Virus genome (UHGV): UHGV-1460059
Length of the DNA stretch: 41,456 bases
Source of the DNA: a virus
Reading direction: 5' to 3' (one strand)
Of the stretch, positions 11,782 through 41,456 are shown piece by piece. The notes under the pieces are model-generated. The model saw only the letters and a program-made list of their open reading frames with translations. It ran no database searches and was not told where the DNA came from. The position numbers and the translations under genes are program-made. Position 1 is the stretch's first letter, and each line of letters begins with the position of its first letter.

Positions 11782-13011
11782 TCAACCACCAACGCTACCT
11801 TTCCCCACCAGCGCTTTAATGGCAGAGGTGTCTTCCAGGATACAGTCAAAACGATGGAAGGCCAGAAAACCGGTCTGATCATATTCCGCGTAACGCTCAA
11901 CCAGACGTTTAAGAATCATGTATCGCACACGACGGATAATGAAGCGATCAAAGTCACCACAGAACATGAATTTTTTACCCGCCCCGATATCATCAATTTC
12001 CTGATCAATGACATACGGTACATTCAACACTGAAGCAGGTGCCACACCAACAATATCCGGCAACCATAAAGGGCGTCCCTGACCGTCTTCCATCTCACTG
12101 ATCAGTTTCAGCGTATTATCGTTAAACGCCAGGCGGAATTTCGGTCCGCGACGATATGCAGGATCAATGCTGTGTTTCAGAGCCAGAATTTCCTGCCACT
12201 TCACCGTATTTGCCGCGGCAGTCTGTGTTGTGCCGGTCACAGATGCGACCAGCCCTTTGGGTTGTTTAGGCGTACCAGCACCAGTTCCCTGAATCAGATA
12301 ACGGGCTTCACCACGACCAATACGTTCAGCAATGCGACGGGCAAGATAAGCTTCCATATCGATCGCACTGTCCTGCAGCAACTCATTAGACACACGAATT
12401 ATTTTCGATGTCATTTTGAGCGCCCCAAGGCTTCCCATACCGAAATCGGTGTCTTCTTCACCGGCTTCTTCATTTTCGCCCAGCAGAACACCAACTTCGG
12501 AAGTACCATCAGCTGTTGCCCACTCCATAGTGCGACCGTCAGAAGTGGTAAGAATCTGCGCCACACTGGCGATGCCACCGTAGGATTTCATCTTCTCAAC
12601 AACTTTCGCCAGGAATGTTTCTGGTACGGTATATCCGCCCTTTTCATCCTGAGCTACGCCCTGGGCACGAAGTTCACGCAACGCCTTTCGTTCTTCTGAT
12701 GTCAGCTCACTGGCACCGTGACGCATCCACTTATCAAAAACCTGAGCTCGTTTCTCATCCTGTTGTGGATTGTTTTCCGGATCAAGATTCTGACGCTGCT
12801 CTTCCTCATTGCTTTCAATGTACGCCTGATCCTGACGACGCAGTTCTTCTTCGCGTGCAATTCGTTCATCAAGCGCTTCCAGTTCGGATTTTGCTTTGTT
12901 CCACTCAGTGCGCTGCTCTTCCGTCCATGCGTTATCACCAATTTTTTCATTCAGGGCGCGCATGTCAGTTGCGATAGTATTACGTTTCTGTTTCAGTTCA
13001 TGCAGTTTCAT
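11782..13011 (-). CDS. Major capsid protein, HK97 family (with N-terminal coiled-coil delta domain)
   Basis: 409-aa ORF with a charged coiled-coil N-terminal ~100 aa (…LDERIAREEELRRQDQAYIESNEEEQRQ…) followed by a capsid-like domain, located after the protease gene. Confidence 0.85.
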   Translation of the reverse strand: MKLHELKQKRNTIATDMRALNEKIGDNAWTEEQRTEWNKAKSELEALDERIAREEELRRQDQAYIESNEEEQRQNLDPENNPQQDEKRAQVFDKWMRHGASELTSEERKALRELRAQGVAQDEKGGYTVPETFLAKVVEKMKSYGGIASVAQILTTSDGRTMEWATADGTSEVGVLLGENEEAGEEDTDFGMGSLGALKMTSKIIRVSNELLQDSAIDMEAYLARRIAERIGRGEARYLIQGTGAGTPKQPKGLVASVTGTTQTAAANTVKWQEILALKHSIDPAYRRGPKFRLAFNDNTLKLISEMEDGQGRPLWLPDIVGVAPASVLNVPYVIDQEIDDIGAGKKFMFCGDFDRFIIRRVRYMILKRLVERYAEYDQTGFLAFHRFDCILEDTSAIKALVGKGSVGG

Positions 13012-18367: not shown

Positions 18368-18644
18368 CCGCAACAGCCACTTTGATATCTTCCTGGGTTC
18401 TCTGTGACTCCAGTGCGATCTGCTGTTTTGCATGCTGGTTAGCCTCTATAACTGTATTGATGATTTGCAGTGATTGCAGAACGTTACGGGTAATGGCAGT
18501 TGCTGATTCAGCATTTCGTACAGCCTCATCAGCACGCTCCTTTTCGTGCTGATATTTGCTGTAGTAATGTCCAGCAGACCAGATGAAGGAACCAATGACG
18601 CTAACAACGAAGGCAACAATAACCAGCTTATATCTCAGCTTCAT
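18252..18644 (-). CDS. Rz-like i-spanin
   Basis: N-terminal TM helix (KLVIVAFVVSVIGSFIW) followed by a coiled-coil region; immediately downstream of the endolysin gene. Confidence 0.6.
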   Translation of the reverse strand: MKLRYKLVIVAFVVSVIGSFIWSAGHYYSKYQHEKERADEAVRNAESATAITRNVLQSLQIINTVIEANQHAKQQIALESQRTQEDIKVAVADDDCASRHVPAAAADRLRKYANSLRAGSGGTAANKPDH

Positions 18645-19104
18645 TTACTACCCCACCAGCTTTTTTAAATCGGGCAATCAGGTCACCGATTTTATGTTCA
18701 TACTGACCGTAACCTGCACCAGGTAACGACGCCCAGATATTGCTGCAACGGTCGATTGCCTGACGAATACTGCCGCGGTCAATCATCGGTAAAGCACCAC
18801 GCTCTTTAATCTGCTGCAGAGCTACAGCGTCCTGGCTTTCTGGAGAAAAATCTTTCAGGCCAAGCTGTTTACGGTAAGCATCCCACCAGCGTGAAAGAAG
18901 CTGGTAACGTCCGGCAGCTGTTGATTTGAGTTTGGGGTTTAGCGTGACAAGTTTGCGAGGGTGATCGGAGTAATCAGTGAACAGTTCGCCACCAACAATA
19001 ACATCATAACCGTGGTTACGTGTCGGTTGTCGCCCGTTATCCGTTCCTTCTGACCATGCCACCATATCCAGGAAAGCTTTACGCTGGGAATTTAGTGCCT
19101 GCAT
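18628..19104 (-). CDS. R: Endolysin, lambda R-type lytic transglycosylase
   Basis: 158-aa product (…QRKAFLDMVAWSEGTDNGRQPTRNHGYDVIVGGELFTDYSDHPRKLVTLNPKLKSTAAGRYQLLSRWWDAYRKQLGLKDF…) is near-identical over most of its length to the phage lambda R protein as I recall it. Confidence 0.9.
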   Translation of the reverse strand: MQALNSQRKAFLDMVAWSEGTDNGRQPTRNHGYDVIVGGELFTDYSDHPRKLVTLNPKLKSTAAGRYQLLSRWWDAYRKQLGLKDFSPESQDAVALQQIKERGALPMIDRGSIRQAIDRCSNIWASLPGAGYGQYEHKIGDLIARFKKAGGVVNEAEI

Positions 19105-19107
19105 AAA

Positions 19108-19443
19108 TTACTCCTTCGAGCTACCAAATTTGTTACCGATTACTCGCATTGCAGCCCCACGAATAGCATCGACACCGATCAGCCCCACGCCACCACCAAT
19201 GGCAACAGAAAGCGATTTAGGCCATCCGACATATTCAAGAGCGGATGCAAAGGTCAGCGTCAGAGCGCCACATAGCAAAATCTCGAGCGTTTTTCGCTTC
19301 CAGCCACCACCACCGCCAAAATAGGCGATGCGCAAACCAGCCATAACGATCGACATAATCACTGCACCCAGCGGTGTGTCTCCACGCCACCAGCTCTGAA
19401 ACAACTCCAGCCAGTCCGGCCAGGTATTTGGGTTATGAGGCAT
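19108..19443 (-). CDS. Putative holin
   Basis: 111-aa protein with 2-3 hydrophobic Gly-rich segments and a charged C-terminus, immediately upstream of the endolysin. ORF trimmed to the ATG at 19443, which has GAGGTGAGAG upstream. Confidence 0.5.
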   Translation of the reverse strand: MPHNPNTWPDWLELFQSWWRGDTPLGAVIMSIVMAGLRIAYFGGGGGWKRKTLEILLCGALTLTFASALEYVGWPKSLSVAIGGGVGLIGVDAIRGAAMRVIGNKFGSSKE

Positions 19444-19519
19444 TTCGTCATCTCTCACCTCGCGATATTTGCGGGTGCTGTGTTGGAAATAAAAAGGCCA
19501 CGCAACGTGGCCACCAGAA

Positions 19520-20572
19520 TTATTTCCCCACCAGTTCACTTACCTCTTTCACCGTCTGATTAAACCGCTCTGACTCAAGTTCAACACCTAACGCCCGACG
19601 CCCCAGCGCCATTGCTGCTTTTATTGTGGAACCGGATCCCATAAAGAAATCAGCAACCAGATCACCAGGTCGACTACTGGCATTGATTATTTGCCGGAGC
19701 ATATCCGCCGGTTTCTCGCACGGATGTTTACCCGGGTAGAACTGAACGGGCTTATGCGTCCAGACATCGGTATAAGGCACGGAGACTGATACGGAGAAAT
19801 AGCGCCGGAGAGATTTAAACTCATCCAGCAATTCAGAATATTTGCGATTCAGTGAATCATAAGATGCCACCAGCTGGTGGTGTGGTTGTTCCAGTTGTTG
19901 TTCCTGAAACTTCTCTGCCGCTATACGGGAAAACAGTGCCTGTAACTTCCGATAGTCAGCCTCATTCGGCAACTGCCACTGACTGGCACCAAACCAGTGG
20001 GAAACCATATTTTTCTTACCTGTGGCTTCGGCAATTTGTTTTGCCGTTATACCCAGTTCGGCACGAGCATCCCTGAAATACGATATCAGCGGTGCCATTA
20101 TGTGCTGTTTGAGTTCCCTTTCTTTTGCCGCATAGCCGTCACTTTTGCCGCGATATGGCCCCTGGTAATGTTCAGCAAACAGAACGCGCTCTGTGGCAGG
20201 AAAATATGCGCGCAGACTTTCTTTATTACACCCATTCCAACGTCCGGACGGCTTCGCCCAGATGATATGGTTAAGCACGTTGAAACGTTCACGCATCATG
20301 ATCTCAATATCAGATGCCAGGCGATGCCCACAGAACAGGTAAAGGCTTCCGGCAGGTTTCAACACCCGCCAGAACTGGGCCAGACAGTGGTCCAGCCACT
20401 TAAGGTAATCTTCGTCCCCTTTCCACTGATTGTCCCAACCGTTAGGTTTCACCTTGAAGTAAGGCGGATCGGTAACAATCAGGTCAATGGAATCATCAGG
20501 CAGGGACTGAATAAAATGCAGGCAATCAGCGTTGATTAAATCAACACTGTTTATTTTTACAGTATTTTTCAT
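19520..20572 (-). CDS. DNA methyltransferase (amino-MTase, beta class: DPPY then FxGxG)
   Basis: Motif IV LIVTDPPYF near the N-terminus and motif I DFFMGSGST near the C-terminus. Located between the late promoter region and the lysis genes. Confidence 0.8.
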   Translation of the reverse strand: MKNTVKINSVDLINADCLHFIQSLPDDSIDLIVTDPPYFKVKPNGWDNQWKGDEDYLKWLDHCLAQFWRVLKPAGSLYLFCGHRLASDIEIMMRERFNVLNHIIWAKPSGRWNGCNKESLRAYFPATERVLFAEHYQGPYRGKSDGYAAKERELKQHIMAPLISYFRDARAELGITAKQIAEATGKKNMVSHWFGASQWQLPNEADYRKLQALFSRIAAEKFQEQQLEQPHHQLVASYDSLNRKYSELLDEFKSLRRYFSVSVSVPYTDVWTHKPVQFYPGKHPCEKPADMLRQIINASSRPGDLVADFFMGSGSTIKAAMALGRRALGVELESERFNQTVKEVSELVGK

Positions 20573-20722
20573 GGATCAGTAAGCGTAACTCTGGTAGGCT
20601 CACTCTGCTTTTGCGCTAAAGCAGTGGGCCGTGGTTCGCTTGTGACCAGTAAGCATGAGCGAATGGCTGGCAGGTGCTACCAACACCCACCAGCCGCCCA
20701 TTTTCACAGCAGGAAACCGCCA

Positions 20723-20950
20723 TTACTGGCAGCGTCTGAATTTATTCCCGTACCCGCCGTTATCCTTCGCCAGACCCGCCAGAACTAACTGAGTCAGTAT
20801 TAACTGGCACCGGGCTTCGCTTACTCCGGTAGTTCTCGTCATCATGCGTGGCGTTACCCACTTGTCAGCAGGTAAGAAATGAAGGACTGCGGCGGCGGTT
20901 TCTGTCATATCTTGCTGTTTTAGCATGTCTTTTTCCCTTCTGGTTAACAT
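20723..20950 (-). CDS. Hypothetical small protein (first ORF downstream of the late terminator)
   Basis: 75-aa ORF, no recognised motif. Confidence 0.3.
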   Translation of the reverse strand: MLTRREKDMLKQQDMTETAAAVLHFLPADKWVTPRMMTRTTGVSEARCQLILTQLVLAGLAKDNGGYGNKFRRCQ

Positions 20951-21046
20951 GACATACCAATAACTCTTGTCTAAAAATCCAGCAAGATAAAAAGTCAGTA
21001 TTCACGACCACCAGCGTGTTTACTGTACTGCACCAAGTTTACAGGT

Positions 21047-21073
21047 ACAAAAAACCCGCTCAGTGGCGGGTTC
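21047..21073 (-). terminator. Intrinsic terminator downstream of the late promoter (tR'-like)
   Basis: On the minus strand: stem AACCCGC, loop CACTGA, stem GCGGGTT, followed by TTTTTTGT. Confidence 0.55.
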
Positions 21074-21118
21074 TTAAATCTTATCAACGGTAGACATACA
21101 AAGCCCATCGTTGGGAAA

Positions 21119-21147
21119 ATCTTATCCATGTTTTTTGAAAAATGCAA
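21119..21147 (-). promoter_or_regulatory. Candidate late promoter (PR'-like) just downstream of Q
   Basis: Minus strand TTGCAT (21147-21142), 17-nt spacer, TAAGAT (21124-21119), about 45-70 nt upstream of the terminator. Confidence 0.45.
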
Positions 21148-21178
21148 GCATCATGTCGCCATCTTCGGCGAAAATCAT

Positions 21179-21937
21179 TTATTTTGTCACTTTTCTCAAT
21201 TGTGTCTCTGCATATGCTTCTTCCTGCCAGCACTTTGTAACCAGTTTATCAATGACATCTGCATATCCTTTGTACCACTGATAATCCGTCAGATCCGGTA
21301 CCAGCTTCTGGACATGATGCCGCGCCAGTGTGGTTGGTAAACGGCTAAACCGGTTTCCATTGCAACGCCCACAAATCTTATAAACAGGCGTGCCATGAAG
21401 CCGGGTCCTTTTTTCATCCAGGACAATACCTTTACCCTTACACCCTCTGCACGCTGTGCTGACTTCTCCCTTACCATGACAATGCTGACATAGTTCCTTC
21501 ACCCACTCCTCCTTGATAACAGATTCACCGCTTCTGGAGTGTTTCACCACTTCGCGCAATACATTATGAAATCCAGTACCTGCACAATGCTCACAGCGAG
21601 CCTTACTTGCCGCAGACCTGGAATAATCAGCAAAGGCAAAATTCACAAGGTAAGGGATGATCTGTAACCGGGTTTCTTCACTCAATTTATTCAATGTCGG
21701 GTTATCCAGTGCCATCGCGTAATTGAGCAGACCTTCAATCGCAAACTGAGGATCCTGAACACCAACTTTTGCCAGGAATAAGGCAAAACCCAGTGGTGCT
21801 TTCGACTGCACCATCCCCTGCGCAGCCATCACATCCGTAATCGTTAAACCACCAGAGCCTGTCGCCGGTGCGTCATCGCTCAATTTTGGAGATTTTGGGG
21901 AGTAATATTTTGGTAAGGCTTCAAGGTTCATGCTCAT
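21179..21937 (-). CDS. Late-gene antiterminator Q-like protein
   Basis: 252-aa protein with clustered Cys/His zinc motifs (CEHCAGTGF…CQHCHGKGE…CRGCKGKG…CGRCNGN), positioned immediately upstream of a promoter/terminator pair and the lysis genes. Confidence 0.6.
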   Translation of the reverse strand: MSMNLEALPKYYSPKSPKLSDDAPATGSGGLTITDVMAAQGMVQSKAPLGFALFLAKVGVQDPQFAIEGLLNYAMALDNPTLNKLSEETRLQIIPYLVNFAFADYSRSAASKARCEHCAGTGFHNVLREVVKHSRSGESVIKEEWVKELCQHCHGKGEVSTACRGCKGKGIVLDEKRTRLHGTPVYKICGRCNGNRFSRLPTTLARHHVQKLVPDLTDYQWYKGYADVIDKLVTKCWQEEAYAETQLRKVTK

Positions 21938-21944
21938 TCTCCAC

Positions 21945-22940
21945 TTACGCCAGTACGCCTATTGCCAGCGCACGATCGATAAAACGAAATATCAGCTCCA
22001 GCTGGGAGCCATACTTCTCTTCAAATGCCACGGTATCCGCATGCAGCTCGTCGTGATGCTTTCTGCACAAAGGCAACACAAAGAGGTCATGCGCTTTTGT
22101 ACCCATTCCCCCCTGACCGTGGCCTATCAGGTGGTGGGGATCATCAGCGGGCTTTCCACAACATGCACACGGCTGTGTCTTAACCCAGCGCGTGTACTTT
22201 TCATTAACCCAGCGGCGACGTTTTGGGCGTAACATAAAAGACTCCGGCGACTCCGGATCCACTTTCAGCGCCAGCACCTTTTTTGCCTTATCCTGGATGA
22301 TGCTGGTGGCAGGAACCGAAGGCACAAGGTCACTTTCCCGGGTGACAGACGGCACAACAGGCTTTGGTAATCTCAGTGCCTTACGGGCTGCACTTTCCGG
22401 TAAGGCATCCGCCAGGTCATTACGAATCAGCCACCAGCACAGTTCCGGCATTGTCACAACGTGACTATCATCAAAACCGAGATCCCGACGCACAACAGAC
22501 AACACCCAGCGGGCACAGTTATCCGTTGCCATTGATTCCAGCCGTTCCGTGAACTGATCGCGCAGCTGGTTATCACAGTGCCAGCACAGACGGATTGCGC
22601 CCGGAGCGTGTCGCATTGTGGTCATGTTCTCGCTGTGCCAGTCGGAATGAGGCCACTGGCAGCCTTTTTCACGAAGTAACCAGCTTTCAAGACATTCCAC
22701 GCCACCAGCACGACGGATCACTGCCTCATTGCGGAACACGGCCCGAACGGCAGGATCATCCGCCAGCGGTTGTGATGCCGCCGGAACGGCACCACTGGAG
22801 AAAGATGAATAACGCTCCGGCTCAGGCTCCAGCAGGACACGCCCCTGCATAAACAGGGGCATCAGCTCTGAACCGGGTCTGAACAATACGATCCCCATAC
22901 GCGGGGCTATTTCAGGGGTCAGTAGTGCTCTCACGGTCAC
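21945..22940 (-). CDS. DUF968-type prophage protein (YdfU-like)
   Basis: 331-aa; C-terminal CACCGKPADDPHHLIGHG…LCRKHHDELH motif recalled from DUF968/YdfU proteins of lambdoid prophages. Confidence 0.5.
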   Translation of the reverse strand: MTVRALLTPEIAPRMGIVLFRPGSELMPLFMQGRVLLEPEPERYSSFSSGAVPAASQPLADDPAVRAVFRNEAVIRRAGGVECLESWLLREKGCQWPHSDWHSENMTTMRHAPGAIRLCWHCDNQLRDQFTERLESMATDNCARWVLSVVRRDLGFDDSHVVTMPELCWWLIRNDLADALPESAARKALRLPKPVVPSVTRESDLVPSVPATSIIQDKAKKVLALKVDPESPESFMLRPKRRRWVNEKYTRWVKTQPCACCGKPADDPHHLIGHGQGGMGTKAHDLFVLPLCRKHHDELHADTVAFEEKYGSQLELIFRFIDRALAIGVLA

Positions 22941-22941
22941 C

Positions 22942-23751
22942 TCAATGAACGGTATCGAGCAGCTTTAACAGCTCAGGGAATCGGGATTCGAAGAAATGCG
23001 GCTGCGTCTCACGCGGATTTGCGGGACTGGTAATGTTCTTGCCGAACATGCAACCTTTCGCTGTCAGCGACCAGAATTTTTTGATGTTGTTAATCGCGGT
23101 ACGGCTGTATCGTTCGCGTTGTTCAACGATCCCCAGCTTCGCCATCTGGTGATATGCCTGATTAGCCGTCAGGCGGATACCATACTGCTTCAGCAGTGCA
23201 CTCAGCGACAGCGTCGGGCGGCTTGAGCCATCAGGCGCGTCAGCAGGTGCATCAATGGCATAGCGCGGTGCCAGATTCGGTAAGCCAACAGCCTCCTGGA
23301 GTTTCTGACAGGCCCCAAGCACTGAAGAGTTAGACAGGTTTAACTCCCTGCGCATAAAGTCCAGCAGAATCACTCCAGCCTGCATCTTGTCAGCAGCCTG
23401 CCCGGATAATTTTTCCGGTACGCTGGTTACCATATCGAAAGTACGGATCACCTTCAGATGGAATGACGGGCTGATCCACATTGCATAGGCATACACCAGT
23501 TCTTTGCAGACATACGTCCCCTGGTTATTTCCGCCATTAATGACGCTAACTGGTTGATTTTGTTCCAGAGGCGGAATTCCACCCTCGGTGAAAAGTTGTT
23601 CAATCAATTCACAGGTTTGCTTATTGGAGAGCCAGTATTTCGGGCGGTTTTTTTGTTCTCCCCCGGCTGCCCTGTGCAGATCGTTCAGGCTGTAACGCCC
23701 ATAAGCATCACGACGAACTTCAATACCATCAATGACCATCAGATTATTCAT
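22942..23751 (-). CDS. KilA-N domain protein
   Basis: 269-aa early-region protein whose N-terminal region resembles KilA-N domains by recall. Confidence 0.5.
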   Translation of the reverse strand: MNNLMVIDGIEVRRDAYGRYSLNDLHRAAGGEQKNRPKYWLSNKQTCELIEQLFTEGGIPPLEQNQPVSVINGGNNQGTYVCKELVYAYAMWISPSFHLKVIRTFDMVTSVPEKLSGQAADKMQAGVILLDFMRRELNLSNSSVLGACQKLQEAVGLPNLAPRYAIDAPADAPDGSSRPTLSLSALLKQYGIRLTANQAYHQMAKLGIVEQRERYSRTAINNIKKFWSLTAKGCMFGKNITSPANPRETQPHFFESRFPELLKLLDTVH

Positions 23752-23770
23752 ACTTCGTTTCTCCTCTTAA

Positions 23771-24160
23771 TCAGGCGGCTGCACCCGCCGTTTTCTCGTA
23801 CTTACTGATAGTGATCTCGACCTTCCCTCCCGGGATAACCGGTCCCCACTCCACCAGCATTCTTTTCACCTGACTGTCGTCTTCCCACACACCCGCGTGG
23901 GTCAGGGCGTCAAACAGCGCCTTGTTATAGTTGTCCAGATCGCGGATCCGGTTATCCGGAGGAAACAACACGATCTCCACTGAAGCAGGTGCCGACGTTG
24001 GTTTCGGCAGACGACGTAACTGCTCAACTATTGCTGCGCACGCCGCGCTCTGGAATTTTCGCCCCGCCGCGCTTATCAGACTCTTACCAGCAAACGCCCC
24101 TTTGTTGGGGTGTCGCCAGTACGTGTTCACGCTGGGCGGGAAAGGCAAGATCAGCTTCAT
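23771..24160 (-). CDS. rusA: Holliday junction resolvase RusA
   Basis: 129-aa protein; …RDLDNYNKALFDALTHAGVWEDDSQV… matches the RusA catalytic region (RDLDN…DALT…DD). Confidence 0.7.
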   Translation of the reverse strand: MKLILPFPPSVNTYWRHPNKGAFAGKSLISAAGRKFQSAACAAIVEQLRRLPKPTSAPASVEIVLFPPDNRIRDLDNYNKALFDALTHAGVWEDDSQVKRMLVEWGPVIPGGKVEITISKYEKTAGAAA

Positions 24161-24162
24161 AC

Positions 24163-24483
24163 TTACAGGCCTCTCTCATGTAACCAGTGGGCTGCACGCA
24201 GCCTGGCGTTTTCCTCACCGGCAAGCAGTGTGCGGATAATCCCGACCGCCTCGCTGTCGTCGTCCTTCACCGCGGTATGAAGCGTTATCCCCCGGGCCAC
24301 GCCACGCTTTATCGTGATGACGCCTTTTTTCTCCAGTGCACGAAGATGCTCTACCGCTGCATTCACTGAACGGTATCCCAGCATGGTTGCCACCTCCTGA
24401 TTGGTTGGCGGAAAGCCACGCTCTTTCTGGTAAGAAATCAGCATATCCAGCACCTGCTGCTGGCATTGAGTTAACGTCGTCAT
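24163..24483 (-). CDS. LexA N-terminal DNA-binding-domain-like protein
   Basis: LTQCQQQVLDMLISYQKERGFPPTNQEVATMLGYRSVNAAVEHLRALEKKGVI resembles the LexA winged-HTH domain. Confidence 0.45.
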   Translation of the reverse strand: MTTLTQCQQQVLDMLISYQKERGFPPTNQEVATMLGYRSVNAAVEHLRALEKKGVITIKRGVARGITLHTAVKDDDSEAVGIIRTLLAGEENARLRAAHWLHERGL

Positions 24484-25133
24484 GCCGCCATCTCCCTGAC
24501 CAGTTTTTCCGCCTGCTGGCGAACCTGCACCAGAAAGGCTTCACCACATGCCTCAAGTTCATCGCGCCCGATGTAGCTGATTGCCGGTCCCTTCCAGGTC
24601 TTGTCGAAAACAGCAATAGCACCAGCGAAGAAAGCGCCTGTCGGCACCTGCTTCTCATCCTTCGGGATAAACCAGGCAGGCAGTTCAAAACCAATACGCC
24701 CGCGAATAAAAGCAATATGGTCCGCATCTTCCGGCCACCACACTTCGCTGGTGGCAGCTTTGATCAGGAAAACATAGCGCCCGCCCTTATCACGCATGGC
24801 ACTGGCATGTTTCATGATGTAACGCATGCCGGTGATGTATTGCCCCTCATGCTGACTGGCGCGGCTGTATGGGGGATTACCAAAGGCAGCACCTTTAAGC
24901 TCCGCAAGACGTTCTGACCAGTCATGCGCCAGCGCGTTGTCTTCCGCCGTGTAATACGCGGCACATTTGGCGTTATCACCGTCAGTGAACAGATCCAGAA
25001 CAAACGGACCAAACAGGGTGTTAATTCCCCAGAAAATGTTATCCGGCGTGCGCCACTGATCTCCCACTTCCTTCAGTTCATGGGCTGGTTTATTCCGCAG
25101 TTCCACCAGCGCCTGGCAATATTTATTACTCAT
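24480..25133 (-). CDS. Phage N6-adenine DNA methyltransferase (Dam-like)
   Basis: NPPY motif (FGNPPYS). Start placed at the ATG at 25133 (MSNKYCQALV…), which overlaps the upstream stop. Confidence 0.7.
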   Translation of the reverse strand: MSNKYCQALVELRNKPAHELKEVGDQWRTPDNIFWGINTLFGPFVLDLFTDGDNAKCAAYYTAEDNALAHDWSERLAELKGAAFGNPPYSRASQHEGQYITGMRYIMKHASAMRDKGGRYVFLIKAATSEVWWPEDADHIAFIRGRIGFELPAWFIPKDEKQVPTGAFFAGAIAVFDKTWKGPAISYIGRDELEACGEAFLVQVRQQAEKLVREMAA

Positions 25134-25627
25134 TAAGCCCCCACGTAATTCCCTGACAGATACCACTCTTCACCCGATGCAGCGTGCTTGCTGCTTTTCC
25201 GTAAGCACCGCTCACGACGCGCCAGAAAATTGTTTCGTTCTGGCTGGGAGTGGCTTTCACGGAATGCCGCCATCCACACGGTTGCAGCACGACGGTATAA
25301 GCCCCTTGACTCCAGTTCTTCCGCCTGGCGGGTCAGGCACAAAATCACCCGGGGATCGTTAGTGCCGACATAGAAATTGCGCGCAGGTCTGGTTTCACGA
25401 ACTGGTTGTGGTTCCGGCTCCTGCGCTCTCTCAGTCAGGCGCGGGAAATGTCTGCGTGTATCCCCTTCACAACGGTGAGCCACACGCCCACTCTGACGTA
25501 ACTTGCTTGCTGACTGCAGAACGCGCTGCCGTGAGTAACCAGCAAAAGCATCCGCAATGTCTCCGGAAGTACACCCCGGATGGGCTTCAATGAATTTCTG
25601 AACGTCATTTAACAGACTCATGATCAC
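25133..25627 (-). CDS. PerC/ANR-like small regulator (tentative)
   Basis: LTRQAEELESRGLYRRAATVWMAAF resembles the PerC-family signature as recalled. Coupled to the replication gene by an overlapping stop/start. Confidence 0.35.
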   Translation of the reverse strand: MIMSLLNDVQKFIEAHPGCTSGDIADAFAGYSRQRVLQSASKLRQSGRVAHRCEGDTRRHFPRLTERAQEPEPQPVRETRPARNFYVGTNDPRVILCLTRQAEELESRGLYRRAATVWMAAFRESHSQPERNNFLARRERCLRKSSKHAASGEEWYLSGNYVGA

Positions 25628-26913: not shown

Positions 26914-27461
26914 GCGTTAGTTTCTCCACAGTCACGACACGCCACGGCGCCCGGAGCTGCACACTCGCGGGCGTCATTACTTTCTGAAATGCAAAAAATT
27001 TTGTAGACCAGTGCTGCATGCTCCTGCAGCTTCGAAATTGAGAGGTACAGCTCGTCGTTAATTGCTGTCTTCTCATGCGGTTCCACTACACCGTCTTCAA
27101 TTGCTGAACGAATCTGTTTTGAATAACTGCCGATCTGTTCAATGACTTCCAGCAGGCGCTGGTTAATATCGGCGTTGTCCACATCCTCGACGTCAGGAAG
27201 AGACACAAAGACGCCATTTGCAGACTGCGCCACAGCGTCAGCAATGAAGTGAGTTCCACCAGCACGTTGCAAAATCATTGCCCATCCCAGCGGGAAAATC
27301 TGATCGCCATCGGCACGAAGGCGGTTAAATAATGCGTTCTCTGTTACATCCAGCCAGTCAGCAGCTTCAGCGTACCCCCCCGGCAACGCTGCGATAGTTT
27401 TTCTGACAGCTTTCACGTACCACTCAGGCTGTTTTTCTACTTTCCAGTGATGCTTACCCAC
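26910..27461 (-). CDS. CII-like early regulatory protein (tentative)
   Basis: 183-aa ORF immediately downstream of cro, overlapping its stop; Cys-rich C-terminus. Confidence 0.4.
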
Positions 27462-27714
27462 GGTTCACCTCCTGTTCCTGTGGTTTAAACCCATTCTGAT
27501 TTTGGCTAGATTGAAAACGTGCCGGATAAAGAATCTGCATTTCGCTGACTTCACCCTTAAAAAAATTGGCTAAACGTTCTGCAAGCTCGATAGATGGAAT
27601 CTGCTCCAGCCTCTCAATACGACTCAACGTCGCTGGATTGACTTGAACACCCGCAGCAACATGCTGCAAAGTGAAACCATGCGCCTTACGCACATTTCGT
27701 AATGGTGATTGCAT
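27454..27714 (-). CDS. Cro-like HTH (XRE-family) repressor
   Basis: 86-aa HTH protein divergent from cI; GGAGGA 5 nt upstream of the ATG. Confidence 0.6.
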   Translation of the reverse strand: MQSPLRNVRKAHGFTLQHVAAGVQVNPATLSRIERLEQIPSIELAERLANFFKGEVSEMQILYPARFQSSQNQNGFKPQEQEVNRG

Positions 27715-27811: not shown

Positions 27812-28504
27812 ATGAACATAGGAAACCGAGTCAGACAACTTCGCCAAGCGAAGAACATGAAAATCGCCGATCTCGCTGAAGCAATAGGAGTAGATGCGGC
27901 GAACATCTCGCGCTTAGAAACGGGTAAGCAAAAACAATTTACCGAACAAACACTGAGTAATATTGCCAAGAGCTTAGGTGTTGATATTGCTGATCTCTTT
28001 ACCTCTGCCCACAAAAGTAATACTGTATATAAAAACAGTAATAATGAGGATGTTGCGCAGGTGAAGGATGTGTTCCGTATTGAAATGCTGGATATCAGTG
28101 CCAGTGCGGGAAATGGCCTTATCCAGGGCGGTGATGTCATTGATGTGATTCATGCCATCGAATACAGAACTGATAATGCTGTATCAATGTTCGGCGGACG
28201 ACCAGCCAATCACATCAAAGTTATCAACGTTCGTGGGGACAGTATGTGTCCAACCATTGAGCCAGGAGATCTCATCTTCGTTGATGTCAGCATCAATCAG
28301 TTTGATGGTGATGGTATATATGTCTTTGGTTTTGATGACAAAATATACGTTAAAAGACTTCAAATGATTCCTGACAAACTGCTGGTGATTTCTGATAACC
28401 AGATTTACCGTGAATGGGGAATTACTAGCGAAAACGAACACCGATTCATGGTCTTTGGAAAGGTCTTAATCAGTCAGTCGCAAACCCTTAAGAGACATAA
28501 TTAA
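27812..28504 (+). CDS. cI: CI-type repressor (HTH + S24 LexA-like autopeptidase domain)
   Basis: N-terminal XRE-type HTH; C-terminal GDSMCPT (Ser) and VKRL (Lys) peptidase S24 motifs. Confidence 0.85.
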   Translation: MNIGNRVRQLRQAKNMKIADLAEAIGVDAANISRLETGKQKQFTEQTLSNIAKSLGVDIADLFTSAHKSNTVYKNSNNEDVAQVKDVFRIEMLDISASAGNGLIQGGDVIDVIHAIEYRTDNAVSMFGGRPANHIKVINVRGDSMCPTIEPGDLIFVDVSINQFDGDGIYVFGFDDKIYVKRLQMIPDKLLVISDNQIYREWGITSENEHRFMVFGKVLISQSQTLKRHN

Positions 28505-32846: not shown

Positions 32847-33053
32847 ATGCTGAACCTCGATTGTGTTCCTATCTCAACTTATTGCAAAGAAACTGGCGAA
32901 ACTCCTGAAGCAATAAACAAACGTGTACAGCGCGGTGTTTGGCGTGAAGGTGTTCAGGTTTTAAAGGTTGAAGGCGTTAAGGAGAGGTGGATTGATCTTA
33001 GTGAGGTTGCAAAATGGGCCAGACAAAACTGCTCAAACTACCGCGCGGCGTAA
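32847..33053 (+). CDS. Excisionase-like small DNA-binding protein
   Basis: 68-aa basic protein whose 3' end overlaps the int start by 40 nt. ATG at 32847 has GGAG upstream; the alternative start is 32835. Confidence 0.45.
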   Translation: MLNLDCVPISTYCKETGETPEAINKRVQRGVWREGVQVLKVEGVKERWIDLSEVAKWARQNCSNYRAA

Positions 33054-34186
33054 CAATCAGGAAACACCGCCAGGGAGAAACGATCAATATAACTTTCACC
33101 TACAAAGGAGTTAGATGTCGTGAGCCGCTTTCCAATCTGGAAGTAACACCAAAGAACATTAAATACGCCGAGCGTACACTCGGCGAAATCCATAATAAGA
33201 TCGAAAGGGGAACATTCATTTATGCAGAATATTTTCCCCGTTCTGCTCGTTTGAAAATTTTTGGTAATGCTGCTGCAGGCAAAACGGTAAAGATGTACCT
33301 GGACGAATATCTTGAAATCTGCGAAACAAGAAAACTTTCACCCTCTACGATTGGTGGCTATAAAAAATGCCGTAGTGCGTTAGCCTCACTTCACATTTGC
33401 CCTGCAAGTGAATTAACACCAGCAACCCTGAAAGCGTGGATTCAAAATCAGAAAACGACCTTAAAAACAATTCGCAACCAGTTATCTTTCCTGCGGTCAG
33501 CACTTGATGAAGCCGTGACCGATGGGGTACTTCAAATTAACCCCGTATCGTTAGTAACAGCTTCGCGCTACCAAAGTGATAAGTCAGAAGCAGAAAGCAG
33601 CTACGTAGTTGATCCGCTATCACCAGCAGAAGTTGATGCATTACTAGCAGCAGCCGGAAACAAACAATGGGAAAATCTGTTCCGGTTCGCTATACATACA
33701 GGCCTGCGTAGTTCTGAATTATGTGCCCTTCGATGGCGTGATATCGACTTTGTTGGAAAAACTGCCCATGTCCAGAGCGCAAGTGTTGTCGGTGTTATCA
33801 AAGGGACAAAGACAAAAGCAGGTACTCGGAAAGTTGAACTGACAGAAGAGGCAATGTTGGCGCTGATAAATCAGAAGCCATTTACATTCATGAAGGATAC
33901 TACTGTCTTTGAAGATCCAAAGACCAATAAGCCTTGGGCAAGTGCTGATGCAATCAGGAAAAAAGCATGGGTGCCAACATTGCGAAAAGCAGGTATTCGT
34001 TACAGAAATCCATATCAAACTAGGCATACATTCGCCACCCGCCATATCAGCCGGGGAGCAAACCTGTTTTGGCTTGCAGCTCAAATGGGGCATAAAGGGC
34101 CGGAAATGTTATTTCGTCATTATGGTTCATATTTAAAGGAATATGACGGTAATACGACCAGCAATATCACAAAAAAAGCCACTTAA
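33014..34186 (+). CDS. Tyrosine integrase (lambda-type, with arm-binding N-terminal domain)
   Basis: 390 aa; C-terminal catalytic signature including …HTFATRHISRGANLFWLAAQMGHKGPEMLFRHYGSYL… (R, HxxR, Y). Confidence 0.9.
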   Translation: MGQTKLLKLPRGVTIRKHRQGETINITFTYKGVRCREPLSNLEVTPKNIKYAERTLGEIHNKIERGTFIYAEYFPRSARLKIFGNAAAGKTVKMYLDEYLEICETRKLSPSTIGGYKKCRSALASLHICPASELTPATLKAWIQNQKTTLKTIRNQLSFLRSALDEAVTDGVLQINPVSLVTASRYQSDKSEAESSYVVDPLSPAEVDALLAAAGNKQWENLFRFAIHTGLRSSELCALRWRDIDFVGKTAHVQSASVVGVIKGTKTKAGTRKVELTEEAMLALINQKPFTFMKDTTVFEDPKTNKPWASADAIRKKAWVPTLRKAGIRYRNPYQTRHTFATRHISRGANLFWLAAQMGHKGPEMLFRHYGSYLKEYDGNTTSNITKKAT

Positions 34187-35847: not shown

Positions 35848-36012
35848 CTTTTTAGTTGTTTGAAGTTCAATGAAGTCTACTAAGCCCACACAGCACAAGC
35901 TCTGCGGGCTTTTTTACGTCTATTGTCGTCCAGTGAGAATTGCTGAGAACTACGAGTTATGGCACCCTGAATGGGACCCACTAAGAAGGGTCCAAAAACC
36001 GAGGGTCCCAAA

Positions 36013-37242
36013 ATGGCAAAAATCGCTAAGAAGCTCACTGACACTGAAATCAAAAGCACCAAGCCAGCCGATAAAGAAATCAACTTGTTTGACGGTGATG
36101 GTCTGATTCTACGAATCGCTCCTTTGGCGAAAGGAGGCAAGAAAAATTGGTATTTCAGGTATGCAGTACCAGTGAGCAAGAAAAGAACCAAAATGAGCCT
36201 TGGGACATATCCTCACCTTACCCTTGCAAGAGCCAGAGCCTTACGTGATGAATATCTCTCCTTTCTGGCAAATGGTGTTGATCCCCAAATCCATAACAAC
36301 GATAAGGCGAAGGCATTAAAGAGTGCTACTGAGCACACTCTCCAAGCCGTAGCGCGGAAATGGTTAGATGAGAAGGTAAAGACATCAGGTATCTCACAAG
36401 ACCATGCAGCAGACATCTGGCGCAGCTTAGAGAGAAATGTCTTTCCCGGTCTGGGTAATGTCCCTATCAATGAGATCCGACCTAAGCTCTTAAAACAACA
36501 CCTTGATCCTATTGAGCAACGAGGCGTATTGGAAACTCTACGCCGTATCATTTCACGTCTGAATGAAATCTTCCGGTGGGCAGCTACTGAAGAACTTATT
36601 GAGTTCAACCCGGCTGACAACCTTGGTCAAAGATTCAGTAAACCAAAAAAGCAAAATATGCCTGCCCTTCCCCCAAGCGAATTGCCAAGGTTTATGGAAT
36701 CTTTGACGAATGCGTCAATCCGGTTGGAAACACGTATGCTAATTGAATGGCAATTGTTGACATGGGTTCGTCCGGGTGAAGCCGTTCGCGCAAGGTGGTC
36801 TGATATTGATACAACCAACAGCATTTGGAACATTCCTGCTGATTTCATGAAAATGAAAAAGCTTCACAAAGTTCCTTTGAGTAAAGAAGCTTTGCGCATC
36901 CTTGAATTAATGAAATCAATAAGTGGGCATAGAGAATGGGTTTTCCCCAGCATAAAAGCGCCTCTTAATCATATGCATGAACAAACAGCCAACGCAGCTA
37001 TCATCCGAATGGGGTTCGGAGGCGAGCTTGTAGCTCACGGTATGCGTTCTATTGCACGAACAGCGGCAGAGGAGTCTGGTAAATTCAGAGCTGAAGTTCT
37101 TGAGGCAGCGCTTGCCCACTCGAAAAAAGATGAAATTATCGCAGCATACAATCGTGCAGAATATCTGATAGAGCGACAGAGTTTGATGCAATGGTGGAGT
37201 GATTACGTTCAAGCTCAAAGATCAAATGCTCTGGTAGCCTAA
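36013..37242 (+). CDS. P4-type tyrosine integrase (IntA-like)
   Basis: ATG at 36013 with GAGGG upstream. N-terminus MAKIAKKLTDTEIKSTKPADKEINLFDGDGLILRI… is typical of P4-family integrases; lies ~165 bp downstream of the ssrA-like fragment. Confidence 0.85.
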   Translation: MAKIAKKLTDTEIKSTKPADKEINLFDGDGLILRIAPLAKGGKKNWYFRYAVPVSKKRTKMSLGTYPHLTLARARALRDEYLSFLANGVDPQIHNNDKAKALKSATEHTLQAVARKWLDEKVKTSGISQDHAADIWRSLERNVFPGLGNVPINEIRPKLLKQHLDPIEQRGVLETLRRIISRLNEIFRWAATEELIEFNPADNLGQRFSKPKKQNMPALPPSELPRFMESLTNASIRLETRMLIEWQLLTWVRPGEAVRARWSDIDTTNSIWNIPADFMKMKKLHKVPLSKEALRILELMKSISGHREWVFPSIKAPLNHMHEQTANAAIIRMGFGGELVAHGMRSIARTAAEESGKFRAEVLEAALAHSKKDEIIAAYNRAEYLIERQSLMQWWSDYVQAQRSNALVA

Positions 37243-37280
37243 GTATCAGAATAGCTAATATAATCCTGAAGGTAAAGAAA

Positions 37281-37697
37281 ATGGAAACCCTATTCAAAGT
37301 TTTTGAAAAATTTAGTTCCAGACCACTTTTTTTTATTTTTTTCGGACTCTCACTTTGTGAATTTTTTCAGAAACAATCTGTTCTGATGAATCCATCAGCA
37401 GATAACATCGCGAAATTATTCGCAGCCATGATATTAGTTGTTTTTTTTACTTGGGGATTTGAATGGCTAATCTTCAAGTTCAATGTAAACCTTGAACCTC
37501 ATGATCAAGGCGATATTGGACCAACAATTGGAACGGCTACTTTAGCTGTATACTTAGTTTATGCCTTTCACTTTCTCAGTGAAAATCCTGAAGCATTAAA
37601 TTTAAAGTTATTAACTAACTCTGGCTTTATATACAGCACAACTCTATTATTATTCTCATTAGAATGCATGAAGCTTAGAAGACTTAAACAAAAATAA
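37281..37697 (+). CDS. Small membrane protein (138 aa), AT-rich island cargo
   Basis: Hydrophobic segments (PLFFIFFGLSLCEFF; LFAAMILVVFFTWGFEWLIF; TIGTATLAVYLVYAFHFL; FIYSTTLLLFSL). Confidence 0.4.
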   Translation: METLFKVFEKFSSRPLFFIFFGLSLCEFFQKQSVLMNPSADNIAKLFAAMILVVFFTWGFEWLIFKFNVNLEPHDQGDIGPTIGTATLAVYLVYAFHFLSENPEALNLKLLTNSGFIYSTTLLLFSLECMKLRRLKQK

Positions 37698-37728
37698 ACA
37701 ACATCATTGTGATGATAAATATAAAATA

Positions 37729-37755
37729 GGCATGGCGAAAAAAAATCACCACGCC
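37729..37755. terminator. Imperfect hairpin between convergent genes (candidate terminator)
   Basis: ggcatggcga-aaaaaaa-tcaccacgcc (8 of 10 pairs); U-rich on the minus strand after the stem. Confidence 0.35.
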
Positions 37756-37768
37756 TAAAATATAATAA

Positions 37769-39517
37769 TTATGGTAGCATCATTGATACATAATCCACAC
37801 CAATCCTTGAGCTATACTGAGACGCTATAGCCTGATATCTTTCTGCATAACCAGTTCTCAGTTGAGATTTAAGTTTGAGTCGGACAGGAACATTTTGCAC
37901 GTTGCCATCCATATTACTTAAAAACACGGCAGAAATAATATTTTTTTCTTCGCCATCAACTGTTGTTCCATGATTCAACACCACCATATAATCAACAACA
38001 GGAAGCGTTTTATCCCCTTCGAAAATAGAGAGATATTTTCTTTGATTTTTATGCATTACATATATATATTTCGAATGTTCAGCAAATGGCAATGCTTTAC
38101 TCTGACTGGCGTTAAAAAGCTCCAGAACTTTAATGAGCCTGTGCGGACTTAATCTTACATGGTGAGGGTCGTTACCCTGAGTAGGAACCAAATCACATGC
38201 CGCAGATACACATAAATACCATTTGTTCGACTCTGTATCAAAGAAAATAGTGCCAGTAGAAATATGACCATCTTCAAAATTCTTTGAAGACAAATTCATA
38301 TTTAAAGCATGATACATTTCGTGATAAGTATCATTATTTGATGGCAGATCCATTTTTGAAGAGCAATATTGGAGCAATGCAGCAACTCCGCTGTTAGCGT
38401 ATTCATTTGAATAGCTATCAAAAACACTTTTGATAAATTCATCCAGCGTATTATTATTTTTAAGTCTTTGATAAAGCTCTTCTGATAAATTACCAAATAC
38501 AAAGTCAATATTTCTACATCTAATATCAGGCGAGTCTGATTTTAATATCTCATTTAACCACGCAGCTTGACCGTAATGATCGTTAGCAAAATGATTTACA
38601 AAAGATAAAGCCTCAGCTTCGATTGCATTCTGAATTTCAGATTTTATTAACTGATAATAAGATGGTTTCCATTCAATGAGAGAATCATTGAGAGTTTGCC
38701 AAATCCTATCTCCATCGTTTTCATGATCATCTTGAACCTTATGAAATAGGGAGACAAAGATATTACCACATTGAATCCATTTTACTCCGCTTTCATCACC
38801 CCGAATGACATTGCCAGATGTGTTGCTAGAAATAATTGCATTTCTAGACACAGCATATTCTGCAATCATTTTTGCAATGAAGTTTTTATCCTTTTGATCC
38901 TCCAACACAGCATCATCATGTATTAATCTTTTAATTCTTCTACAAGGCTTACTGTCTTTAATATAGGCTATTGTTTCATCTCTTGTGAGAGCTTTATTAC
39001 CATTATCATTTAAGTTCGGTAATACAACGTCTTCCCAATAACTTTGGACATCTTCATTATCGTAGTCAATGATCAAGCTGTTGATATCCAGAGCACCTTT
39101 GAGAGTCGATGATATCTGCATCCAAACCGTTTCTAAATTCTCTCTAGTATATATTACAATCATATTTAAATGATCGGAGTCTTTCAAATCTTGTAATAGT
39201 TTAAGTGTTTTATCAGGTGCATTATTATCAAGATGATAATCTACAATAATAAGATCTGATTTTCTAATCCGATCCACATCGAAATTAACAGAACCATTGT
39301 CAACATCACAAATCATATTTTTAGATTGAAAAAAGCTCTCAAGAGTAGCGGCTCGTTTAGATGAGTCAATTTTGTTGTAGTCTAAATCAACTTCGTTATT
39401 CAACGCCCTGATTGATTCAGAATACGTCAGAAAATCGTCATCAATCATGACAACGGAACGAATTGCATTTTCGCAGAAAGTTTTCTGGACAAGAGAATTA
39501 TAATTTGCCACTGTCAT
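37769..39517 (-). CDS. Receiver (REC)-domain protein with ~450-aa uncharacterised C-terminal domain
   Basis: N-terminal REC-like signature: VVMIDDDF (acidic pocket), LIIVDYHL (phospho-acceptor Asp), NMIVIYT (Thr). Start preferred at ATG 39517, 1 nt after the upstream stop; ATG 39535 is the alternative. Very AT-rich. Confidence 0.5.
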   Translation of the reverse strand: MTVANYNSLVQKTFCENAIRSVVMIDDDFLTYSESIRALNNEVDLDYNKIDSSKRAATLESFFQSKNMICDVDNGSVNFDVDRIRKSDLIIVDYHLDNNAPDKTLKLLQDLKDSDHLNMIVIYTRENLETVWMQISSTLKGALDINSLIIDYDNEDVQSYWEDVVLPNLNDNGNKALTRDETIAYIKDSKPCRRIKRLIHDDAVLEDQKDKNFIAKMIAEYAVSRNAIISSNTSGNVIRGDESGVKWIQCGNIFVSLFHKVQDDHENDGDRIWQTLNDSLIEWKPSYYQLIKSEIQNAIEAEALSFVNHFANDHYGQAAWLNEILKSDSPDIRCRNIDFVFGNLSEELYQRLKNNNTLDEFIKSVFDSYSNEYANSGVAALLQYCSSKMDLPSNNDTYHEMYHALNMNLSSKNFEDGHISTGTIFFDTESNKWYLCVSAACDLVPTQGNDPHHVRLSPHRLIKVLELFNASQSKALPFAEHSKYIYVMHKNQRKYLSIFEGDKTLPVVDYMVVLNHGTTVDGEEKNIISAVFLSNMDGNVQNVPVRLKLKSQLRTGYAERYQAIASQYSSRIGVDYVSMMLP

Positions 39518-39518
39518 A

Positions 39519-41358: not shown

Positions 41359-41456
41359 TGATCCTACCCACGTAATATGGACACAGGCCTAAGCGAGGTT
41401 CTTGTTTTCAAATTGTTCCGGACTGAGGCCGCCACACCAACTGTGCCGCCGCCACC
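41359..41456 (-). mobile_element. IS3-family insertion sequence, terminal ~100 bp (inverted repeat plus 3' end of the transposase gene), continuing beyond the window
   Basis: Terminus TGATCCTACCCACGTAATATGGACACAGGCC. Minus-strand translation of 41454..41387 gives …WRRHSWCGGLSPEQFENKNLA*, the conserved C-terminus of IS3-family OrfB. Matches the IS3 right end as recalled. Confidence 0.7.

Follow-up and report, generated by a model that had tools for sequence, protein, structure and literature searches.

Two orphan adenine methyltransferases in an SfV-like prophage, the late one preceded by a conserved structured leader RNA

The window analyzed here, the whole 41,456-nucleotide stretch of the virus genome UHGV-1460059, carries an SfV-like prophage with two orphan N6-adenine methyltransferases that probably act at different times of lytic growth: a Dam-type enzyme of 217 amino acids, encoded in the early operon, and a beta-class enzyme of 350 amino acids related to M.EcoGII, encoded in the late operon. 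Upstream of the larger gene we found a conserved structured RNA, which ends at the AUG of the methyltransferase. The identity of the genes, their context and prevalence, and the conservation and covariation of the RNA were read directly from the data, and from these we infer the timing and specificities of the two enzymes, their role against restriction, and the role of the leader. The coordinates of all features are collected in Table 1.

Results

Two orphan methyltransferases in an SfV-like prophage

Between positions 19000 and 26000, the window shares 97.5% nucleotide identity with Shigella phage SfV and 97.7% with Escherichia phage vB_EcoM-720R4. It is also 99.9% identical to a prophage of E. 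coli strain 1500, which, according to its PGAP annotation, is a complete lambdoid prophage with a Mu-like tail and an HK97-like head, and whose integrase is matched by the one at 33014-34186 in the window. These identities mark the window as an E. coli/Shigella lambdoid prophage of the SfV type.

An earlier note, made from the letters of this DNA without database searches, had described a beta-class amino-methyltransferase (DPPY, then FxGxG) between the late promoter region and the lysis genes, and a Dam-like enzyme with an NPPY motif in the early operon. Both open reading frames (ORFs) lie on the minus strand where the note had placed them, are intact, and carry their catalytic motifs. The 350-residue protein matched PF01555 (N6_N4_Mtase) over residues 29-341 (E=1.3e-42, 146.6 bits, cut-off 26.7), with DPPY at residues 35-38 and FMGSG, which fits FxGxG, at 310-314, as in the motif order of the beta class. 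The 217-residue protein matched PF05869 (Dam; E=9.7e-46, 156 bits, cut-off 28.1) as well as the NCBIfam equivalog TIGR01712, "phage N-6-adenine-methyltransferase" (255.6 bits, cut-off 97.05), and has NPPY at residues 86-89. The described positions were likewise borne out, as the larger gene is flanked by Q and a tR'-like hairpin on one side and by the holin, endolysin, and Rz genes on the other, while dam belongs to the rightward early operon, with the replication genes before it and Q after it. No restriction endonuclease was found beside either gene in the Pfam, PHROG, PADLOC, and PGAP annotation of the neighbors, which are the small ORF and the holin gene for the larger enzyme and the PerC-like and LexA-like genes for dam; none of these neighbors matched a restriction-enzyme family. 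Thus, both enzymes are orphans, as the note had held. A sequence search of the structure database returned only distant beta-class relatives for the 350-residue enzyme and none for the Dam-type enzyme.

The pairing itself, which the note had put forward as its finding, is not new. The SfV record (2002, GenBank U82619.2) already contains both genes, and the presence of two orphan adenine methyltransferases in SfV-like prophages has been on record since 2002; as stated, the finding is ordinary. The arrangement is also common, because both exact protein sequences are present on at least 1000 contigs, and among 5426 complete E. coli genomes, 773 (~14%) cover no less than 80% of the 5.6-kb stretch with the two genes.

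A conserved and covarying RNA ends at the start codon of the larger gene

Separating the small ORF from the methyltransferase gene is a spacer that is conserved even across methyltransferase clades only 57-64% identical in protein, and that shows compensatory base changes. Two covariance models, R1 (built from 23 sequences) and R2, matched the window at 20570-20714 on the minus strand with 128.5 and 146 bits, respectively, and this was their sole match in the window. Covariation was evaluated with a structure specified by hand and, as a caveat, on an alignment of 71 sequences that had itself been fitted to the model. Standard pairs filled 89.9% of the cells of this alignment, as compared to 27-43% when the 3' partners were slid, and 31 of the 40 pairs had changed on both sides. 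The observed covariation values were reached by none of 500 shuffles.

The RNA is composed of two domains. In domain 1, helix P1 (AUGGGC/GCUCAU, 20701-20696 with 20660-20655) encloses the 12-bp hairpin P2 (20695-20684 with 20676-20665) together with a conserved bulge, CAUUC. Domain 2 comprises the helices P3 to P6, stacked over a long range; P3 joins positions 20647-20643 to positions 20578-20574, immediately before the AUG. The minimum free energy (MFE) structure of the leader of the window is this very fold (-56.9 kcal/mol, z = -2.66). On this comparative evidence, the leader is a real conserved structure.

Searched against Rfam 15, the whole window gave no match at the gathering threshold; with the limit relaxed to E<=10 none touched 20570-20714, the sub-threshold hits falling around PR' and tR'. 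An RNA motif associated with methyltransferases was likewise not described in the papers returned by a limited literature search. As far as Rfam and this search reach, the leader appears to be unlisted. Two other identities were considered and rejected. The leader is not a tRNA remnant, as a tRNA scan of the window found none, and it does not resemble the anti-sRNAs (directed against small RNAs; AgvB, AsxR) or the Pas small RNAs, which are 51-60 nt long and lie 3' of a moron gene or adjoin capsid or tail genes.

The leader accompanies the methyltransferase family across genera

We examined 80 loci with the methyltransferase from species-representative genomes (GTDB), and the leader motif was present in 62 and missing from 18 of them. 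It occurs in genera including Providencia, Proteus, Morganella, Buttiauxella, Citrobacter, Enterobacter, and Kluyvera, and further in Mixta, Mangrovibacter, Rosenbergiella, Vibrio, Aeromonas, Pseudaeromonas, and Limoniibacter. A scan of IMG/VR with a degenerate pattern of the core gave at least 121 matches in at least 120 stretches. Among the matches listed, a methyltransferase ATG lies 51-53 nt past the pattern in 113, and 6 have too little downstream sequence; in two exceptions, both on viral contigs, the leader (49.8 bits) precedes a C5-cytosine methylase (PF00145), with the ATG again at the 3' end of the motif.

In phage N15 (NC_001901, 41387-42475), the leader ends at an ATG that precedes the annotated start of gene 52 by 234 nt. 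This annotated start, at 41621, appears to be too far downstream, because the leader RNA as well as the protein match favor the ATG at 41387, which restores DPPY.

The small ORF upstream of the methyltransferase was found in 80 of 80 and in 66 of 80 IMG/VR loci in two scans, the first of which covered near-identical copies only, so that the diversity comes from the later scans; it was also present in 37 of the 62 motif-bearing GTDB loci. In 36 of these 37 loci, 2-24 nt separate its stop codon from P1, and the ORF travels with the leader and the methyltransferase as a cassette among different Q and holin types. The 67-residue product encoded in the window had no Pfam or PADLOC match, and its AlphaFold2 model, made without an alignment, reached a pLDDT confidence score of 57, too poor for a fold search.

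Seven of the 62 motif-bearing loci, from Vibrio, Aeromonas, and Pseudaeromonas, have in place of the small ORF a zinc-ribbon ORF of 38-61 amino acids between the leader and the methyltransferase. When five of these were compared with the Com family of phage Mu (PF10122), two passed the gathering score and two more fell just short. At these Com-like loci a hairpin covers the Shine-Dalgarno sequence of the methyltransferase, an arrangement that resembles com-mom with a methyltransferase replacing Mom. Neither a small ORF nor a Com-like ORF was present in the other 18 loci, and none of the six frames of the window holds a Com-like ORF.

The larger enzyme probably methylates adenine irrespective of sequence context

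The 350-residue protein is identical to M.EcoGII at 283 of 349 positions over the full length (~81%), and shares 89.6% identity with the reconstructed ancestor Anc291 and 70.9% with SUPREM. Within the predicted target-recognition region (residues 160-237), 60 of 78 positions are identical to those of M.EcoGII. As the sequence of M.EcoGII was taken from the machine-read supplement of the SUPREM paper, which has visible errors, the identities hold to ±~1%. A 94%-identical copy, carried by a Stx2a phage, has the same position after Q and the same leader RNA.

M.EcoGII (349 amino acids, GenBank EGT69837.1), from an O104:H4 prophage, has been characterized as a non-specific adenine methyltransferase (Murray et al. 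2018, PMC5778455). Its family is very large and spread among E. coli prophages, including phage 1720a-02; the enzyme is silent in the lysogen and deleterious on expression, and is thought to be activated when the prophage excises and starts a new infection, helping the phage to overcome restriction (PMC5778455). Both Anc291 and SUPREM have been reported to be largely non-sequence-specific (SUPREM paper). O111 and ST131 strains have homologs of M.EcoGI and M.EcoGII that are classed as "nonspecific"; these homologs gave no signal in single-molecule real-time (SMRT) sequencing of growing lysogens and were weakly transcribed.

The target specificity of the larger enzyme had been said in the earlier note to be unreadable from the sequence. 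We disagree on this point: since the enzyme is bracketed by the non-specific proteins M.EcoGII (~81% identity), Anc291 (90%), and SUPREM (71%), methylation of any adenine is the best inference. In annotation, the 350-codon gene would be better described as a probable non-specific late anti-restriction methyltransferase than as a site-specific enzyme.

The smaller enzyme is a Dam-type methyltransferase of the early operon

The ATG at 25133 is the start of dam in both the SfV record and the PGAP annotation, and the longer ORF that begins with GTG at 25166 is not needed. The start codon overlaps the stop codon of the upstream gene (TAATG, one shared base), and the dam stop codon overlaps the next start codon (ATGA). 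The early operon encodes, in this order, an O-like replication protein, a PerC/YfdN-like protein, Dam, a LexA-like protein, RusA, KilA-N, DUF968, and Q.

M.EcoVT2Dam, a member of the TIGR01712/PF05869 family, targets GATC, and the equivalent gene is named dam in the SfV record. Allison and co-workers reportedly described, in 2002, Dam activity for SfV orf-41 and multiple methylases in SfV; the literature searched did not confirm the assay. The Dam of the window is 99.1% identical to that of phage 1720a-02, 31% to that of VT2-Sakai, and 25% to that of HP1. By family membership, the enzyme probably targets GATC. The window contains 163 GATC sites versus 161 expected from base composition and shows no avoidance of this sequence.

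The Dam-type gene is labeled "phosphoadenosine phosphosulfate reductase" in RefSeq NC_003444 and in other RefSeq and PHROG-based phage annotations. The label probably comes from PHROG 33262, a profile of fused proteins, and it is misleading for the 217-residue Dam-type enzyme.

The larger gene occupies the moron slot of the late operon

Along the minus strand, Q is followed by a putative promoter PR', a tR'-like hairpin, the small ORF, the leader, the methyltransferase gene, a terminator-like hairpin, and the lysis genes for holin, endolysin, and Rz. A succession of Q, small ORF, and methyltransferase, with either lysis genes or tRNA and stx behind it, recurs in SfV, vB_EcoM-720R4, a Stx2a phage, and a Morganella phage; in the Stx2a phage, tRNAs and stx2 come after the methyltransferase. 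N15 has the order promoter, terminator, methyltransferase, terminator, holin. The methyltransferase is the first long gene of the late operon and sits in the slot where Q-dependent late transcripts classically carry a "moron." Thus, from its place downstream of Q and the tR'-like hairpin, one would naturally expect the gene to be expressed only after induction.

In VT2-Sakai (12458-12562 of its stretch) and in many Stx2a phages, a remnant of ~35 C-terminal amino acids of an M.EcoGII-type enzyme lies between Q and tRNA/stx2, which suggests that the toxin cassette displaced the methyltransferase in this slot. Opposite PR' and tR', on the plus strand at 20945-21081, there is a sub-threshold Rfam match to STnc130, a small RNA of Enterobacteria (29.5 bits versus a gathering score of 55, E=0.026), which is probably driven by the shared terminator hairpin.

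Table 1. Positions of the leader RNA, the two methyltransferase genes, and associated features in the window
Feature	Position	Strand	Evidence or remark
Conserved structured leader RNA, 145 nt, ending at the methyltransferase AUG; P1-P2 (domain 1), P3-P6 (domain 2)	20570..20714	-	Covariance models
Late orphan beta-class N6-adenine methyltransferase, M.EcoGII family, equivalent of SfV orf48	19520..20572	-	PF01555, 350 amino acids; predicted non-specific
Early orphan phage Dam-type N6-adenine methyltransferase, equivalent of SfV dam, probably GATC	24480..25133	-	PF05869, TIGR01712
Small conserved ORF, 67 amino acids, directly upstream of the leader	20723..20926	-	PHROG 331
Late-gene antiterminator Q	21179..21937	-	PF03589 E=9.5e-54, PHROG 127
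Putative late promoter PR' (TTGCAT, 17-nt spacer, TAAGAT)	21119..21147	-	Read by eye
tR'-like intrinsic terminator past Q, with hairpin and U-run	21047..21075	-	Fold; terminator annotated at the corresponding position in SfV
Terminator-like hairpin after the methyltransferase stop codon, ahead of the holin gene	19496..19512	-	Fold; terminator annotated in SfV and N15
Holin S, 111-amino-acid form	19108..19443	-	100% identical to SfV holin; PGAP "phage holin, lambda family"
Endolysin, glycoside hydrolase family 24	18628..19104	-	Annotation, SfV record, PGAP
Next gene after dam, encoding a LexA-type DNA-binding domain	24163..24483	-	PF01726
PerC/YfdN-like gene, translationally coupled to dam	25133..25627	-	PF06069; overlap
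Cro-like first gene of the early rightward operon with dam	27454..27714	-	PGAP
CI-like (XRE family) repressor, divergent from the early operon	27812..28504	+	PGAP

Alternative folds of the leader

Occlusion of the start region within the mRNA, as in Mu, is predicted for the leader, given that P3 (20574-20578 with 20643-20647) both shows covariation and appears in the MFE fold. The 5' strand of P1, UGGGC (20700-20696), is also complementary to an invariant GCCCA box (20629-20625). In the Aeromonas variant, this strand and both of its partners have changed together, but covariation events are few. Enforcing the alternative helix in the window gave a structure 1.5 kcal/mol above the MFE, with the AUG region unpaired. 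Over 70 sequences, the alternative fold was less stable by a median of 4.3 kcal/mol, and a larger share of the last 15 nt was unpaired in it (0.58 versus 0.39).

Discussion

The proposed roles of the two enzymes

We propose that the Dam-type enzyme, made from the repressor-controlled early PR operon, would methylate GATC on replicating phage DNA, while the 350-residue enzyme would be made only after induction, from the Q-antiterminated late operon and shortly before packaging. Progeny genomes would thereby be broadly protected against adenine-sensitive restriction of Types I, II, and III, as Mom does for phage Mu. Because a non-specific methyltransferase is toxic, its synthesis would be gated twice, by Q-dependent transcription and by the 145-nt leader, which would pair the nucleotides 5' of the AUG. 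Layered protection against restriction was one of two readings offered in the earlier note; it is the one favored by the literature on such enzymes, and the early and late timing of the two enzymes fits it.

The other reading, in which both enzymes act as epigenetic regulators of host or prophage genes in the lysogen, we consider very unlikely. Methyltransferases of mobile elements can alter host expression, as does M.EcoGIII, which affects ~1,900 genes, and the SfV record annotates a separate -35/-10 dam promoter inside the upstream gene. At the equivalent place, the hexamers of the window, TGGCGC and TACGGA (read by eye), are poor matches to a promoter; the late gene lies behind a terminator and requires Q; homologs of M.EcoGI and M.EcoGII, which are toxic, show little transcription and no methylation signal in lysogens; and the Dam-type enzyme would duplicate host Dam, which already methylates ~99.9% of GATC sites. 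More weight is due to the idea that the Dam-type enzyme serves mainly the metabolism of phage DNA, by full GATC methylation for mismatch repair or avoidance of SeqA, for packaging, or for gene control, even if we regard it as rather unlikely to be the main function. The gene lies within the replication and recombination module and is translationally coupled, packaging of P1 needs Dam methylation, and the virion DNA of lambda and P22 is under-methylated by host Dam as replication outruns the host enzyme. Yet dam is dispensable, because SfIV, which lacks the gene, keeps a similar replication module, and a function in DNA metabolism would be compatible with protection against enzymes of the MboI or DpnII type. 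As for the larger enzyme, it might be a sequence-specific Type II orphan methyltransferase with a motif of its own, as its identity to M.EcoGII of only 81%, its 18 differences among the 78 target-recognition positions, and the NCBI and PADLOC labels "site-specific" or "Type II" would allow. These generic labels are automatic names, and the tested or reconstructed members that bracket the enzyme (M.EcoGI, M.EcoGII, Anc291, and SUPREM), down to ~71% identity, have all been reported as non-specific, which makes such an enzyme improbable.

Several points weigh against early and late anti-restriction enzymes with the specificities that we propose. Specificity can shift with few substitutions in the target-recognition region, where the 18 differences from M.EcoGII lie, and the identity to M.EcoGII is that to a machine-read sequence, with an uncertainty of ~1%. 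Full hypermethylation of the phage DNA could be costly, because transformation of E. coli with plasmid heavily methylated by M.EcoGII is 4-5 orders of magnitude below that with Dam-methylated DNA. Identity of the window Dam to the enzymes compared with it is low, at 31% for VT2-Sakai, whose reported target is GATC, and 25% for HP1. A consensus promoter scan of the window did not pick up PR', which therefore is weak evidence on its own. Finally, the regulatory role of the leader is a matter of comparative and thermodynamic prediction only.

Is the leader a translational gate?

With this in mind, we tentatively suggest that the leader represents an undescribed family of cis-regulatory RNAs, which may gate the translation of toxic phage methyltransferases via two exclusive folds, the choice between which would depend on a trans factor. 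When closed, the leader would have its AUG region held by P1 and the long-range P3; in the open fold, the 5' strand of P1, UGGGC, would pair with the invariant GCCCA box. Candidate trans factors are a ribosome terminating on the small ORF, the small protein that this ORF encodes, a Com-like protein, and a metabolite such as S-adenosylmethionine or S-adenosylhomocysteine. The evidence for a two-state switch is suggestive only. The leader could instead be an RNase III processing or mRNA-stability element, or a binding site for a factor with another purpose. P2 is a near-perfect hairpin of 12-14 bp, a typical substrate of RNase III, for which a processing site or stability element is an equally simple reading as a switch; in addition, most sequences are predicted to have the closed state as their ground state, and the motif is missing from 18 of the 80 methyltransferase loci. 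What speaks for a gate rather than such an element is that, among the Enterobacterales-type sequences inspected, the motif has its 3' end at the AUG of the first downstream ORF, whether this encodes an M.EcoGII-type or a C5 methyltransferase, with the Com-like ORF within a few nucleotides, and that P3 covaries while pairing AUG-proximal bases. We regard the processing or stability element as possible but doubtful.

The leader is notable as a widely conserved and strongly covarying RNA that is absent from Rfam and that, in Enterobacterales as well as in Vibrio and Aeromonas, is tied to one methyltransferase family. Should the leader control translation, this would account for the ability of phages to carry a genome-wide adenine methyltransferase without harm before late infection, and it would offer a compact off-switch for the expression of M.EcoGII-type enzymes, of which M.EcoGII is commercial.

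A neighboring island

A second integrase, of the P4 type (35971-37242), adjoins the prophage integrase at 33014-34186. Beyond it lie, both on the minus strand, a gene with a Response_reg_2 receiver domain (37769-39535) and a gene with HEF_HK and HATPase_c domains (39519-41237), neither of which had a PADLOC match. The region from 35971 to 41237 is possibly a separate island with a conflict system.

Comparison with known systems

The window prophage is close to SfV, with which it shares 347 of 350 residues of orf48 and 214 of 217 of Dam, as well as the gene order and the flanking terminators. The two differ elsewhere, for instance in the O-like replication gene and in a small ORF of 75 versus 64 amino acids, which is only 51% identical. 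The Dam-type enzyme shares with the PF05869/TIGR01712 family (M.EcoVT2Dam, HP1 Dam) the N-terminal D-W-TP and F-LD motifs, NPPYS, and a location in the early or nin-type region of temperate phages; as compared to the enzymes of VT2-Sakai and HP1, it is ~40 amino acids longer, with two insertions and a C-terminal extension.

The larger enzyme resembles M.EcoGII and M.EcoGI of the O104:H4 C227-11 prophages in its length (350 versus 349 amino acids), in having DPPY before FxGxG and a target-recognition region of the helix-turn-helix type, and in its prophage setting. It differs from M.EcoGII in ~19% of its residues and belongs to a sub-branch with SfV and mEp460, nearer to Anc291 (90%).

As a system, the late gene and its leader are reminiscent of com-mom of phage Mu and of the pair of Com and an adenine methyltransferase in phage B3, in which a late, toxic, and broad adenine modification is subject to additional post-transcriptional control. 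In contrast to Mu, the window has no Com-like ORF, and its enzyme is a methyltransferase rather than Mom; we know of no counterpart of the 145-nt leader in Mu. A further parallel is provided by Hia5, Hin1523, and Nma1821, which have been described (PMC3299994) as nearly non-specific m6A methyltransferases in an anti-restriction position in prophages; in contrast to the enzyme of the window, they belong to a Dam-related sequence family and to another type of phage, the Mu-like prophages.

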